Shown here piece by piece: positions 3,001-9,000 of a stretch of 64,000 nt of DNA (its first letter is position 1; the number at the start of each line of letters is the position of its first letter). Position numbers: made by a program. This DNA is from a virus (lineage: Duplodnaviria; Heunggongvirae; Uroviricota; Caudoviricetes), in the IMG/VR virus record IMGVR_UViG_2724679237_000005, positions 1 to 64,000 of that record. The stretch is one strand, 5' to 3'.

Positions 3001-6000
3001 TAGCGGCACGCCAGCGATGTTCGCCGCCGAGGATTTCAAAAAATCCATCTTCAAGTTCACGAGCCAAAATTGGCTTAAAAAAGCCCAATTTTTCGATAGA
3101 ACCTTTCAGTTTTTCAAAATTCTGCGCACCAACCGAATTGGTGTTCCAGGTATTCGGGCGAAGGTTGGCAACATCAACCTGCAAAATCGTGATTTTTACA
3201 TCCATTTTATTGCTACAATACACTAAGTAATCACTTACTTATTATAATAGCCAAATAACATACAAAAGGCACTAAGGAAAGAGGTTTATGACTGTTCGGA
3301 TTGTATCTAACGCAGTAAATGCGCTTATTTCTGGCGCAGATGACAAGGTAAAGCAACTGGTGCAGCAAATGTTGAGCTACGAAGTCGAGACTGGCGACTG
3401 GAAGGGCACAAGCACGATGTTCAACTGGAGTAAAAACTCGTTCCCTGCTGGCTTTGCCAAGCCTGTAGCGGCGAACTTGAACAAGTCGGGCATCAAATGT
3501 GTTCATATCCGCAAAGACAAAGCCCCGGCGCTTGGAAAGCCAAATCCGGCGGTTAACCCATTCCCATACAATCCTGATTATGCATATCAGGATCAGGCTG
3601 TGGAAACACTAGTTCGCGAGGGAATGATGATTGCCCAGATCGCTACTGGTGGTGGGAAATCTAACGTTGCCTGCAAAGCAGCTGCACGTATCGGTCGAAT
3701 GACATTATTTTTAACAACCCGCTCTGTTCTGATGTTTCAAATGGCCGAAAACTTCCAGAGGTCCATCGACTACCGCGCCGAAAATGGCGAACCGTGGTTA
3801 AAAGACCAAAAGGTTGGAGTCATTGGCTCGGGTGAGTTCCAGGTATCACGACATATCAACGTCGCTACAGTTCAAACTCTTGCAAGTTTCCTCGAAGAAC
3901 CACCACGCGATGCAACACCAGATAAGAAAAGCTACCACCTCAAACGTCGGGAGTTGGTGAAACGCTTCCTTTCAAGTGTCTCTCTTCTTATTCTGGAAGA
4001 GGCGCATGAGTCTTCAGGCTCAAATTTCTATGACATCGCCAGATTATGTGTGAACGCAGACTATCGTCTGGCGCTTACAGCCACGCCGTTCATGAAGGAT
4101 TCGACGGAAGCCAACATGCGCCTGATGGCGGTGGCCGGGCGAATTGAAATTAAAGTCACAGAAAAGTACCTGATTGATCGAGGCATTCTGGCAAAGCCGT
4201 ACTTCCTTTATCATAAAGTTGCCTACAAGCCAGACGAGGCCAGAATCAAGGCCGAACTTGCCAACAAACACCTCAATTTTAGAGTTGGTATGAGCACCGC
4301 CTACCAAAAGGCTTATCAGTTGGGGATCGTGTATAATTTGGGACGTAACGAGGCCATAGTGCGCGAGGCATTGCTTTATAAGCAACATTCACTCAACTGC
4401 ATGACTCTGGTTCGTCTTAAACGCCACGGGCAAATCCTGATGGAGATGATGAAGGAGTCAGGTCTTAGAGTTGATTTCATCTATGGGGAATCTAACCAGA
4501 CGACAAGGCAAGCAAAGCTGAACAGTTTAGCGTCTGGCGAAATAGATGTTTTAATAGGCTCGACTATTCTGGATGTCGGTGTTGATGTGCCAAGTGTGGG
4601 CGCGGTCATTCTTGCTGGTGGTGGGAAAGCAGAAGTTGAAATGAGACAGCGTGTCGGTCGTGGCTTACGAGCCAAGAAGAATCAGGCAAACGTGTGTTTT
4701 ATCACTGATTTCATTGACATTAGCAACAAATACCTGTTGTCTCACTCTTATGAGCGAAAACACATCATCGACACCACACCTGGCTTTGCAGAAGGTGTAT
4801 TGCCTATTGATGGAGCATTCGATTTTGGAGTTCTGAAACGAGATTAGTTATGAGCGAAAAGAAAACAACTTATTGCCAAGTGGCATTGTCTGATAAGGCC
4901 AATGAAAAACTTGGAAAATTTCAAATAAAACTCAAAGAGAAAAAAATCAAGATGTCTAAGGCTGAAGTTATCAATGCCATTCTGGAGACGATGACTATGG
5001 CTGAATTTGACAAAGTCACATCTGCCGTTGGGGTTTCCGCTAAGACGCGTGAGAAAATCATGCGCATCTATGAGAACTCCAATATGACAAAAAAAGATCT
5101 AGAGGAAATACTGAGCAGGTTGCCGTAACATTTCATATTTACCCCCTATCTACTAATTCTATGATGTGCTCACTTGTTAGAAAGGAGCACATCATGAGTT
5201 GGTTAAAAGAATTATCATTTGTTGACACCACTGGCGCTAAGAAAAATCATTCTTTCTGGAAAGTCAGCGATCCTTCTGATTTTCTTGTTGGTGCTAATGC
5301 TGCTTTTGAATTGCTTAACTTTTATCAACGTTATCCTGAAATGAAACACAGTCCACTCCTGTACAGAATAACAAACGATATGAATAGGTCTGGTTTATTA
5401 TCAAGTGAGTCAGCGAAAGGCTTTTTTAGCAAAATTACGCCACACATATCATTCGATTCAGCAAACGAAATTGATTATCTACCCACGAAACCTCAAGAAC
5501 AATTATCTGTACCACCTGAGAAAAAAGAAAGACGAATTGCCAGCATTGAAAATATATCGAAAGAGCTTCGCACAACAACGTTGAGGCTGCTGAACTTTCT
5601 TACGCTACTTAATTGGATAGATGATCAAACATTGATTCCATCAACCGATGCGTTGGATAACAGAGTCCTTAGGCTGAACAAAAAATCGCAATTTGGTTTT
5701 GTGTTCACCAAAAAAGGTGAAGATTTAATCAAAAGAAAATATAGATTATTGAATGATTAATAGTCTACATGCAGGTGTATGAGAGCACCTGCATGTGACA
5801 TTCATCACATTTTTTGAAGTACACACCTCCGGCTGAAAAAATTTCTTGATTGGCTGAACGATATTTGTAGGCTTTTCAATTGATAACTAATGTCGGATAC
5901 TGTAGATGAGTATTTCTATAAACAAAATAATTAACTCTTTACGACATAAAATATCACATGGAAAAGATGCTCTTTTTAAAGACAAATATTATCTATTCAA

Positions 6001-9000
6001 CTTAGAGCCGTACAAATGTACAAAATTTTATATCACTCGGAACCGTAAATATTCAGTTTCAATCACAAAAGACATGAAGAAAATCTCTTCAGAAGAGTAC
6101 TTCATATCACATATTTATATCTACCCATTTAAATTAGAACCATTAAATATAATTCTTCCAACAATAAAAGGGGTTGAACTTGAAGGTTATACTTTAAGCT
6201 CTAACTTTAATGATATGGGTGTACAAAAACCAGGGACAAGGTCATACTACGCCTACAAAGTAAAATGCAATAACTACAACGCACTTAACATGCTAATCAG
6301 CAAACTTGAAACGGAGATAGTCGAAGGAAATCTAAATGATGATCATGAAAAATTAGAACAAATAGAAAAACTTAGAAAGTGTGATGTTAAATAATTGGAT
6401 TATCATGATATGAAAATGAAACTTTCGTTACTCCTTGCTTGTATATGCCTCCCGGCGTTTTCCGCCAACGCATTATCAGATTTCGTCTCTGACATGCAAA
6501 AAACGTACAGCATGTTTACCTCCGAAGACGTAGTAGAATACAAATCACGAGGTCTGAATCAGCCAGTTTGGTTCAGATTCTCAGACAACGCAGAAGAAAC
6601 AATACTTAATGGAGGAAAAGAAAGATTACGGTTGCAAATTAACGGGACCGCTGTACCAGAAAACGTTAATGTAAGCTCTGACGAAGCCATGAAGCCATCT
6701 GGAATTGTTTTAGAAGTTCAAGACGGCACACTTTACTGTGATGAAATGGCTACAACAGGTTGCCAAGTAAACATTAGGGTTGGCAATGAAGAGCCTATCG
6801 TTACTTACGCCAAGGCTGAAGGGAATACAAGTGGAAAGGTATTGTTTATCGATGAAAATATCTCAAAACGTATCGTTCGTGACATACAGAAAACAGCTAA
6901 CTCTAAATCCGTCGATAAAAAAATCTATGTTGAGGTTCCCTTCTTTGTCGTTGGTAACAAAGAATTTAAATTTGGGTTGCTGAAAACACCTCTAAGAGTA
7001 TCAGAATGAGAACATTGGACATCACCTACGGCATACCGGCTGAAGTCTGGCCGCGAGACTACGAACATGCTGAAAACATACTTATGTTCTGGCGGAAGAA
7101 CAACATTCCTGTAAGAGTCACGCTTGAAGACGGTCAGGTGTTTTGCATGTACGTTCAGGGGACAATGCCTTCCCGCAATAAGCTAGATTTATGCCCGCTT
7201 CCATATGATAAAGAAAATCGTATAAGACTCCCACTTGAGCGCATTAGCACAATTGAATCAGGTGTAATCGATGGCATTGCTCGCGAGTTCAAAGGTAGGC
7301 TAACAATACATCCAGACTATGTTGACAATCAGCCATCACGCCGTGACTTTTTTGCGATATGTCGCAAGGCTTATCAAAACGACCAATCTATAAGGGTCTA
7401 CATGGCAGACGGTCGTGAAATTGAAGGGGTGTCAAGAGGCGTTGATGCTTGCCAGGTCACTCTTAAGTTAGAAGACGGCAGAAAAATACTTGTTTTCTTC
7501 GATTGGGTCGAACGAATCCTTCCATTTTAAATCTATAAGGGTAATAACCGGCTAAGCCCGGTTATTATTTTACATGCCATTCATTTAAAACTCTTTCAAC
7601 GCCACTCTGTATAAATATATAAGGTTAAAGGCCCGAATTGATTATTTATTTAGGGAACACCTTCGACGATCTCGCTTTTATTTCTAGGACTTTCACCCCT
7701 GCAAGAAATTTAAAAAAAATACTTGCAATCTTTTTTCACGTATCGATAATTGAACTCGTCGAAAGCGAGCTAGCTAACGACAGTAAAAAATAAATTCATT
7801 TTAATTTTTCGTAAGGATGTCCATCATGGCTAACATTATCATTTCTAAAAAGTCCATCATTGAAGCTGCATCTATTGTATCCGACGAGCTGCGCGAAAAA
7901 GCAGATCTGGCAACTCAAACATATAACGAACATTATAAAAATGGTACGCACACTAAAGCAGACAAAGCAAATATGCAAGCTGCGACCACTAAACTTGCTT
8001 ACTTCATCAACAACGTTGTAAACGCTGTAGAAGACGAAAAATTATGCTCTGTTTTCTACTATGCGATTAAAGCAAGCAAACAAGCGCCAGAAGTATTTTT
8101 CCGTGATGCAATGACTAATAGTTATTCTCTGGAAAAACTGGTTTATCTGGTTAAATCAATTAAATCTGGTAAATGCGTTTATTCCATCGCTGATATGTCA
8201 GGATCTCGTGTATTCGCTTTAATCGATATGATTAACGACGAGATCGACACGTTCACCAATGGCGCTGTTTTCGATTTAATGAATGAAGCTAAAAAAGCGT
8301 GCGAAATTAAATTGGACGCTGGCTATACTCAAGCTAACCAGCTAATCAATCTTTGCGAACGTCTCGGACTTGTTGAGAAAGTCAAAGGAATGGGAAGCGC
8401 CAAAGCTGGTACACAGCAATATCGCTTTATCAAGAATGATTTCTACAATTATCTAGCTGACGCTTTCAAAGCGTAATTAATGGAATTAAGCGCCCATAGT
8501 GGGCGCTTTAAAGGAGCTTTAAAGATGGTCAGCTATGACAAGATCCGCGCGGAATATCGCGCAAAGTATCGCGCTTATAAACTGGAATTAATCGATGATT
8601 TGATCGCGCAACGCGACCAATTAAATTTTACGTTTTCTGATTTGCTTAACAGCAAGCGAGATTGCAAGCGTAAACGTGAATACTTACGTTTAAGCACATT
8701 AATCGGAAAACTTCAAAATTCTATTTAATTTTTTAAGGAGCTTAATCATGTTTGTTCTTATCGCTGGCGTTAACGTCCATAATGAATATTATGTTAATCG
8801 CATCGCTGGGATCGCTGGTTACGCTGGGCGCACAGTCGAGCTTATAGATGAAACGACGCGCAAAATTGACTTATTGAGCGACCAGGAGCGAAAAAAAGCA
8901 GACGTGAACGACGCTGATATATTTTTAATGTTAAAAGCGTTTGTAGAAATGGGATTTAAAATCAGTTTACACAAATAAAATCGAGCGCCCACTATGGGCG

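Follow-up and report, generated by a model that had tools for sequence, protein, structure and literature searches.

A core FljA-like gene and predicted envelope-acting cargo share a three-gene run in an SSU5-type phage-plasmid

The locus and the element that carries it

We analysed a run of three genes in a stretch of 64,000 nucleotides of viral DNA (positions 1 to 64,000 of the IMG/VR record IMGVR_UViG_2724679237_000005; the whole stretch is called the window below), which had originally been predicted, from its sequence alone, to be an AT-rich, acquired cassette with a secreted product. All three genes lie on the plus strand: open reading frame (ORF) 1, at 5906–6394, encodes a basic, predicted cytoplasmic protein of 162 residues at 29% GC; ORF2, at 6410–7009 with a start at either 6410 or 6416, encodes a predicted Sec-exported periplasmic protein; and ORF3, at 7006–7530, is a FljA-family gene whose product is modelled as two tandem Sm/Hfq-like domains. 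The region is composite and not one acquired unit, and the earlier finding, although real, was mis-bounded. ORF3 belongs to the backbone of the element, whereas ORF1 and ORF2 are rare accessory genes in a recombination hotspot beside it, and are ordinary by themselves.

The region from 4800 to 8600 is 99.6% identical to approximately 110-kb non-mobilizable plasmids of Escherichia fergusonii and Escherichia coli, and overall matches 761 plasmid records from Klebsiella, Escherichia, Enterobacter, Yersinia and Salmonella; one close relative among the plasmids is from E. coli O104:H4 2009EL-2050. Its phage matches are CMS-2020a, Cyrano and SSU5, and the plasmid and phage matches together identify the window as a phage-plasmid of the SSU5/pHCM2 type. 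The local order is two ParB-like genes on the minus strand, a DEAD-box helicase gene (3288–4847), orf92, orf188, ORF1, ORF2, ORF3 and orf219. On the plus strand, orf92 (4850–5128; phrog_1466) and orf219 (7817–8476; phrog_1513) are backbone genes forming the left and right flanks of the variable region, and orf188 (5194–5760; phrog_13473) is a slot gene that occurs in some slot states only. Pfam, NCBIfam and PADLOC held no match for orf92, orf188, ORF1, ORF2 or orf219, which matched only unknown-function families in PHROGs, and an Rfam scan of the whole window matched no family.

Throughout, counts of gene records come from tblastn searches of PLSDB, and synteny was followed in a sample of 94 loci drawn from annotated records, GTDB genomes and IMG/VR (L and P numbers are our handles for surveyed sequences). 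Breakpoints were placed by pairwise DNA comparison with Cyrano, pPK8276 and pECAZ155_2. Three SSU5-type enterobacterial sequences (L013, L014 and P0093) carry unexpected taxon names in the databases, namely those of 'Bacillota bacterium' and 'Candidatus Fimivivens' metagenome-assembled genomes and of Gemella morbillorum; such names most likely stem from binning or contamination rather than true host range.

Backbone and cargo within the three-gene run

The three co-directional genes of the original prediction are all real. Ratios of nonsynonymous to synonymous substitution (dN/dS) against diverged homologs were 0.14–0.24 for ORF1, 0.12–0.29 for ORF2 and about 0.10 for ORF3 (0.09–0.29 overall), which rules out non-coding or junk ORFs. 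The start of ORF1 at 5906 is correct, because its first 56 codons (pN/pS 0.38) are as constrained as the remainder (0.43); homologs also keep all 162 residues, and the RefSeq start at 6074, giving 106 residues, is probably too short. RefSeq start calls look wrong at 5906–6394 of the window, at 4275–4595 of L001 and at 3604–4101 of L005, and the ORF2 of pECAZ155_2 is entered in RefSeq as a protein of 165 residues without a signal peptide, whereas tblastn aligns all 199 residues.

With a window mean of 45.7% GC and a standard deviation of 4.5% for 500-bp windows, ORF1 (29.2%) lies about 3.7 standard deviations below the mean, and the 500-bp windows over it, at 29.4–30.8%, are among the lowest of the whole stretch, in which only 21 of about 635 such windows fall below 36%. 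ORF2 is marginal (40.2%, about 1.2 standard deviations below) and ORF3, at 45.0%, equals the window mean. The flanking genes orf188 and orf219 also fall below the mean, at 35.6% and 38.6%, which makes ORF3 a local GC maximum outside any AT-rich block. The lower GC content claimed for all three genes relative to their neighbours is thus a property of ORF1 and, marginally, of ORF2, but not of ORF3, and the distinct base composition of a prophage moron is found in ORF1 only.

The distribution of the genes among related plasmids is very uneven. ORF3 was found in 831 plasmid records, in 822 of them at full length, its carriers being plasmids of the SSU5/pHCM2/pMT1/pKpn type in which it holds the same position; orf219 was found in 815, whereas the ORF2 family occurs in 65 and ORF1 in 23 of the approximately 815 related records, so that ORF1 and ORF2 are dispensable in the manner of morons and ORF3 is not. 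Every one of the 23 ORF1 genes adjoins an ORF2, while about 42 of the 65 carriers of the ORF2 family lack ORF1. The order orf92–slot–FljA–slot–orf219 is kept wherever the flanks are present among the 94 loci; orf92 is found in every locus that reaches that far (91 of the 93 outside the window), and orf219 has a dN/dS of 0.05–0.09. Full-length conservation in 822 records, together with GC content at the window mean, identifies ORF3 as backbone rather than cargo. Universal conservation in relatives with core-like composition had been named at the outset as the observation that would count against acquisition; it is what we see for ORF3, but not for ORF1 and ORF2.

The variable slot between orf92 and the FljA-like gene has a maximal extent of 5133–7005. 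Homology with pECAZ155_2 ends at 5132 and restarts at 6409, and that with Cyrano and pPK8276 ends at 5874 and restarts at 7018. A second variable insertion point lies at about 7528–7530, immediately 3′ of the ORF3 stop codon, where L005, L007 and L093 carry insertions of 0.3–2.1 kb. Equivalents of this hotspot behind the FljA-like gene were noted in L005, L007, L023, L025, L093 and L097.

The accessory character foreseen for the cassette therefore holds for ORF1 and ORF2, which lie between breakpoints, are rare and are replaced by other exported proteins in relatives, and fails for ORF3. Horizontal acquisition of all three genes as one moron cassette, foreign in composition and equipped with its own terminator, would account for the co-directional arrangement of the three genes and their tight packing (a 15-nt gap and then a 4-nt overlap), for the hairpin after the third gene and for the strong AT-richness of ORF1. 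We nevertheless consider it highly improbable, because about 820 related plasmids have ORF3 whatever their slot contains, because its GC content is that of the window as a whole, because the breakpoints split ORF1 and ORF2 from ORF3 at 7005–7018, and because the terminator hairpin is itself backbone, on the far side of the second insertion point.

Recent import of the cargo from an AT-rich donor was also considered. In L085, identity to the window is 53% for ORF1 and 54% for ORF2, compared with 54% for orf92 and 43% for orf188, and both cargo families recur in the slot of L097, a much more distant element with a FljA-like protein only 39% identical. Since the cargo in L085 is as diverged as the backbone and recurs in L097, the pair are old, patchily retained residents rather than recent imports. 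AT-richness is characteristic of the ORF1 family, being retained at 53% identity (the L085 ORF1 has 30% GC).

Family and fold of the FljA-like protein

ORF3 matches PF03614 (FljA / Flag1_repress) with an E-value of 5e-81 and 270.9 bits, against a cut-off of 24, its residues 5–171 aligning with profile positions 1–170, and of the 83 homolog clusters with E ≤ 0.001 all bar one short fragment (P0014) match the same family. It is 35% identical over 170 residues (E 8e-32) to the annotated FljA of the Salmonella Senftenberg linear plasmid p11-5006.1, which has a flagellin gene directly upstream. The FljA^z66 protein of pBSSB1 represses expression of flagellin (fliC) post-transcriptionally (PMC2652032).

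An AlphaFold2 model built with 19 homologs has a predicted local distance difference test score (pLDDT) of 84.4 and a predicted template modelling score (pTM) of 0.81, and consists of two repeats of one helix and five strands; it has the N-terminal helix and, after it, the strongly bent antiparallel sheet of five strands that characterize the Sm fold. Residues 123–165 give sub-threshold Pfam matches to Hfq (E 0.0012; 18.8 bits against a cut-off of 27) and LSM (E 0.03), which agree with the model and thereby support an RNA-binding mechanism. No solved structure in the Protein Data Bank (PDB) matches ORF3 by sequence, the only hits being chance ferritin fragments. We conclude that ORF3 encodes a FljA-family protein, presumably a regulator, with a predicted tandem Sm/Hfq-like fold.

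The ORF3 subfamily is distinct, its members being 48–100% identical to one another and about 35% identical to the one flagellin-linked FljA used for comparison. Near the N-terminus, 19 diverse members share the invariant peptide ITYGxPAEVWPRDY, and the looser motif ITYGxxAExWPR(D/E)Y, together with a C-terminal DWV.RI, is common to ORF3 and flagellin-linked FljA. This peptide (residues 5–19, within 7006–7065 of the window) is predicted to be disordered, with pLDDT below 50 for residues 1–13, and may be an interaction or RNA-contact motif.

In family membership, length (about 174 residues) and shared motifs, therefore, ORF3 resembles FljA, and the post-transcriptional action of FljA fits the predicted fold. 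It differs in being a near-universal backbone gene, with no linked flagellin gene or invertase switch, that is also present in non-flagellated hosts; the arrangement expected of FljA is an operon shared with an alternative flagellin gene (fljB–fljA), usually behind an invertible promoter. The closest systems otherwise are Hfq and the Sm-like (LSm) RNA-binding proteins, and phage proteins of the LSm fold such as T4 GoF (PMC12152347). The literature searched yielded no link between fljA and SSU5 or phage-plasmids, nor any between FljA and an Sm-like fold.

Target of the FljA-like protein

The nearest characterized relatives of ORF3 suggest a straightforward role, in which the FljA-like protein would bind the leader of the host fliC mRNA and silence flagellin in the lysogen, with low motility, protection from flagellotropic phages or reduced immune detection as the result. 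The strong PF03614 membership, the 35% identity to an annotated FljA, the shared ITYGxxAExWPR(D/E)Y motif and the post-transcriptional repression of fliC by FljA relatives are all in keeping with such a role. No flagellin or invertase gene, however, adjoins the FljA-like gene in the window, in its annotated relatives or in the slots inspected, and what precedes it is the gene for an exported protein, one for an ORF1-like protein, or no gene. Intact copies are carried by 341 Klebsiella and 62 Yersinia (pMT1) plasmids and are under purifying selection, comparison of the Klebsiella lineage with that of pMT1 giving a dN/dS of 0.097. Klebsiella is without flagella, and Y. pestis is likewise non-motile.

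Evidence from a motile host points the same way. The phage-plasmid Cyrano of E. coli LF82 carries a FljA-like protein 99% identical to ORF3, and its transcript in the lysogen reaches a log2 value of about 4.2 in overnight LB culture and 7–8 in culture medium and in macrophages, where the lytic cycle is off (PMC9928086 S1 Table). LF82 is nevertheless strongly flagellated, with FliC-dependent motility (PMC10809763). In addition, E. coli O104:H4 2009EL-2050, whose plasmid includes the close relative of the region, has been typed as H4. Sequence resembling the E. coli fliC leader was sought in the window, where only chance 9–12-mers turned up, an uninformative result.

Given the lack of a linked flagellin gene, the non-motile hosts and the motility of LF82 with a transcribed copy, we favour a phage-plasmid or other host transcript as the target, and regard constitutive silencing of flagellin by ORF3 as unlikely; the name under which databases list this protein, 'repressor of phase-1 flagellin / transcriptional regulator', probably misleads. 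Because the Cyrano copy rises 8–16-fold in medium and macrophages, repression of flagellin could be conditional, and in that form it is the main rival to our interpretation, although we think it rather unlikely.

The exported protein

The Sec signal peptide reported for the middle gene of the run was confirmed by sequence rules and by a conserved cleavage motif. The N-terminus of ORF2 reads MKMKLSLLLACICLPAFSANA up to the cleavage site and LSD after it, with a KD(11) value of 2.7, and by these rules the signal peptide comprises residues 1–21 (6410–6472) and the mature protein 178 residues with an isoelectric point (pI) of 5.1. The motif FSANA-(L/V)SD, cleaved after FSANA, is kept across the family, whereas the cysteine of 'LLAC' is not, being absent from the homologs P0010, P0013 and pCPE35_196. 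These two observations identify ORF2 as a substrate of signal peptidase I and not a lipoprotein, the latter having been considered and rejected since the lipobox cysteine at +1 is not conserved. The two cysteines of the mature protein are invariant. ORF2 is thus predicted to be periplasmic and is probably disulfide-bonded.

The family is small: 5.8 billion proteins clustered at 90% identity contain 14 clusters of it, and an exhaustive hidden Markov model search of 1.84 billion proteins with the ORF2 profile returned nine representatives. An Ig-like repeat protein, P0103, also matches the profile, but the score comes from eight identical repeats and is only a weak hint. Carriers of informative length are all enterobacterial elements of about 100 kb, and even the most distant member (P0106, 27% identical) occupies the same slot, on the opposite strand, in an element with a 39%-identical FljA-like protein; the family occurs in SSU5-type elements only, and there only in this slot. 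Structure prediction, which had been suggested as a check on the cassette, returned for ORF2 a low-confidence model (pLDDT 56) with no convincing fold match, and a PDB sequence search with the family profile found nothing.

ORF1 and its relatives

The 162-residue product of ORF1 (pI 9.15) has neither a signal peptide nor a transmembrane segment, and only three clusters of it exist among the 5.8 billion proteins. Profile comparison with hhalign related it to the proteins in the same position in L075 and L080 at 95.6% probability and to those in L025 and L091 at 86%, and BLAST gave approximately 31–35 bits to a 183-residue protein of the divergent L097, the gene for which overlaps the start of FljA. 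By these comparisons ORF1 is a member of a superfamily specific to the slot, whose members are AT-rich (30–37% GC), lack export signals and each adjoin an exported protein; such pairs occur in four other slot states as well as in L097, and the exported partners are unrelated to one another. A PDB sequence search with the superfamily profile found nothing. The remote homology search proposed originally thus connected ORF1 with its positional analogues but led to no family of assigned function for either ORF1 or ORF2.

This association bears on the possibility of a toxin/immunity or two-component abortive-infection pair, the function of which would require both ORF1 and ORF2. ORF1 was never seen without ORF2 (23 of 23 records), its relatives recur beside exported proteins, and one possible member of the superfamily is fused to an HNH domain, all of which such a pair would explain. 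Against it, about 42 of the 65 ORF2-family carriers do without ORF1, the partner families of ORF1-like proteins are mutually unrelated, no PADLOC or toxin-family match was obtained, and a cytoplasmic and a periplasmic protein would be an unusual topology for direct contact. We regard an obligate pair as distinctly improbable. More generally, toxicity, immunity and exclusion, the functions first suggested for the cassette, found no support in the family libraries searched (Pfam, NCBIfam, PADLOC and PHROGs).

Contents of the two slots

About nine states of the upstream slot were distinguished among the 94 loci. That of the window (orf188, ORF1 and ORF2) is one; in others the slot holds ORF2 alone, orf188 with a 54%-identical ORF2 homolog, orf188 with a reversed 266-residue lipoprotein (Cyrano), a lipoprotein of this 266-residue Cyrano-type family alone, a 140-residue lipoprotein (SSU5 and pMT1), a reversed 145-residue lipoprotein (Klebsiella), or an orf188-like gene followed by a protein of 191–204 residues and a secreted protein of 118 residues, and in the ninth it is empty, at 116–136 bp. 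Most of the non-empty states examined therefore include an exported protein or lipoprotein. orf188 itself belongs to the first, third, fourth and eighth of these states and is absent from the SSU5, pMT1, common Klebsiella lipoprotein and pECAZ155_2 types.

Other contents are of a different kind. At 3833–4966 of L023, and also at 38209–39339 of NZ_CP027369.1, the slot encodes a 377-residue protein with a C-terminal HNH nuclease domain (PF01844, 27.7 bits), the N-terminal half of which resembles the ORF1 superfamily at an hhalign probability of only 65%; in tblastn searches with this HNH-fused member, only HNH domains were matched elsewhere. The downstream slot can hold small, cysteine-rich secreted proteins of about 100 residues, holds a two-gene insert of 2.1 kb in Klebsiella plasmids, and in L093 holds a SMEK_N/EAD11-domain protein with a PADLOC hit beside a reversed lipoprotein. 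With exported proteins, the HNH fusion and the SMEK/EAD protein among their contents, the two slots look like a hotspot for envelope and conflict cargo. We found no description of the slot, its contents or its association with FljA in the literature searched.

These contents also bear on whether ORF1 and ORF2 might be host-interaction or virulence cargo rather than exclusion genes, with ORF2 as, for instance, a factor of the periplasm or surface resembling lambda Bor or Lom, or the invasion-associated protein IalB. The structural signals that suggest such a resemblance are below reliable thresholds and derive from the model with a pLDDT of 56, the slot also gathers nuclease and SMEK-type conflict genes, and the ORF2 family is confined to the slot; we judge host interaction to be an improbable role.

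Hairpins and transcription

The 11-bp perfect hairpin that had been reported over the start of orf188 is present. Its arms, at 5162–5172 and 5186–5196, cover the end of the Shine–Dalgarno sequence and the ATG (5162–5196, plus strand), with a folding energy (dG) of −28.5 kcal/mol and a z-score of −7.0. The repeat is kept in 42%-identical homologs, in which the core ATGTGCTC...GAGCACAT is invariant and the flanking pair changes from G–C to C–G, on both sides; it could be an RNA hairpin for translational control or a DNA operator. Were translation to start at the upstream in-frame ATG at 5161, the repeat would itself be coding, which is how Cyrano is annotated. After the orf188 stop codon, a 12-bp perfect hairpin (5767–5796, plus strand; dG −26.8, z −5.1) is followed by a run of six T residues only 14 nt downstream and, on that account, is atypical as an intrinsic terminator; the terminator scan did not call it.

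A terminator had been predicted to follow the third gene. We find a terminator-like hairpin after the FljA-like gene at 7538–7571 (plus strand), with a core 10-bp stem followed by UUUU, but it is moderate (dG −15.5, z −2.7) rather than strong and was not called by the consensus scan. It lies beyond the second insertion point and belongs to the backbone.

The ATG of ORF3 overlaps the stop codon of ORF2 (ATGA, 7006–7009), and the gap between ORF1 and ORF2 is 15 nt. In 60 of 95 loci an ORF of the same orientation lies directly against the 5′ end of FljA, which, with the ATGA overlap, suggests that translation of FljA is often coupled to that of a cargo gene. In the Cyrano lysogen, the orf92 homolog CYRAN_117 is transcribed 12-fold above the prophage background and is among the most highly transcribed prophage genes (PMC9928086), and the slot gene CYRAN_115 reaches log2 values of 9.2–9.4 while the lytic cycle is off (PMC9928086 S1 Table).

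A composite interpretation

We propose that the helicase gene, orf92, the FljA-like gene, the terminator and orf219 form a backbone run, of which the helicase–orf92–FljA unit would be transcribed in the lysogen. The FljA-like protein would bind the leader of a specific mRNA, probably other than that of host flagellin, and block its translation. The upstream slot is the recombination hotspot that collects accessory genes (here orf188, ORF1 and ORF2), and the inserted cargo would make use of the transcription of the unit. ORF1 and ORF2 would then be accessory genes expressed in the lysogen and acting at the cell envelope, with ORF1 either as a cytoplasmic partner or as an independent conflict gene, and the periplasmic ORF2 might confer superinfection exclusion. 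As a whole, this combination of a FljA-like backbone regulator with envelope-acting cargo is the explanation towards which we lean; exclusion by ORF2 is our favoured guess, suggested by the precedents of Sim in P1, Llp in T5 and Cor.

Sim of P1 is a periplasmic protein of another phage-plasmid, Llp of T5 and Cor of phi80 and N15 are lipoproteins, and Bor of lambda is an exported moron product. ORF2 is like these prophage morons in being small, exported, encoded by a temperate element, dispensable and located in a slot that holds lipoproteins in relatives, and transcripts of the slot lipoprotein are present in the Cyrano lysogen; unlike them, it shares no sequence or reliable structural similarity with any of the group and, in contrast with Llp and Cor, is not a lipoprotein. 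Neither ORF1 nor ORF2 has homology to known exclusion or defence families, and the envelope location of ORF2 is predicted from sequence. The arrangement of the locus agrees with the hotspots of the phage-plasmid pangenome (Pfeifer et al.), in which the backbone is conserved and co-localized and exchange of accessory genes is limited to defined points; the FljA-like gene has one such point on either side.

Several observations weigh against our interpretation. ORF1 and ORF2 are empty in the Pfam, NCBIfam, PADLOC and PDB sequence searches and of unknown function in PHROGs, and the relation of the HNH-fused protein to the ORF1 superfamily has a probability of only 65%. The argument from LF82 motility assumes that the stocks still carry the plasmid and that the level of FljA-like protein is sufficient, and conservation in Klebsiella could reflect movement of the plasmids between motile and non-motile hosts. 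The plus strand has no consensus promoter between 5250 and 7723, so that the operon structure is conjectural, and the expression data come from Cyrano, the slot of which has contents different from those of the window.

A bolder version of this interpretation, which we offer as tentative and on the whole doubtful, would make the FljA-like protein a core post-transcriptional regulator of SSU5-type phage-plasmids, a tandem-Sm protein controlling the translation of a phage-plasmid mRNA and, through it, for instance the choice between plasmid and lytic states, copy number or the expression of the adjacent envelope cargo, with FljA, the phase-variation repressor of Salmonella, as a domesticated offshoot. 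The slot would then be a dedicated hotspot that pairs ORF1-like proteins, possibly once fused to HNH domains, with interchangeable exported proteins as an exclusion or defence module.

Other features of the window

A second AT-rich island lies within 18258–23500, with a GC content of 28–35% at approximately 21.8–23.5 kb. On its minus strand, a 1211-residue ORF at 18258–21893 looks by eye like an adhesin of the intimin/invasin type with repeated Ig-like segments, and a 162-residue ORF at 22429–22917 like a regulator of the MarR/SlyA type; the island is a probable separate virulence-type cargo. Between 12800 and 13800 there is a marked strand asymmetry, with GC skew up to +0.47 and AT skew down to −0.54, and Tandem Repeats Finder detected no tandem repeats in that interval.

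Implications

Phage-plasmids of the SSU5/pHCM2/pMT1/pKpn type are common in clinical Enterobacteriaceae (about 800 PLSDB records) and carry resistance and virulence cargo. We did not find, in the literature searched, any report that the FljA family is core to SSU5-type elements irrespective of host motility, that it has a tandem Hfq-like fold, or that it is flanked by cargo hotspots with a slot-specific superfamily among their contents. The presence of a FljA-family gene in nearly all such elements, together with its predicted tandem Hfq-like fold, makes an RNA-binding regulator of phage-plasmid biology a testable proposition, and the two hotspots, with a slot-specific family beside exported proteins, offer a concrete place in which to look for new exclusion or defence functions.

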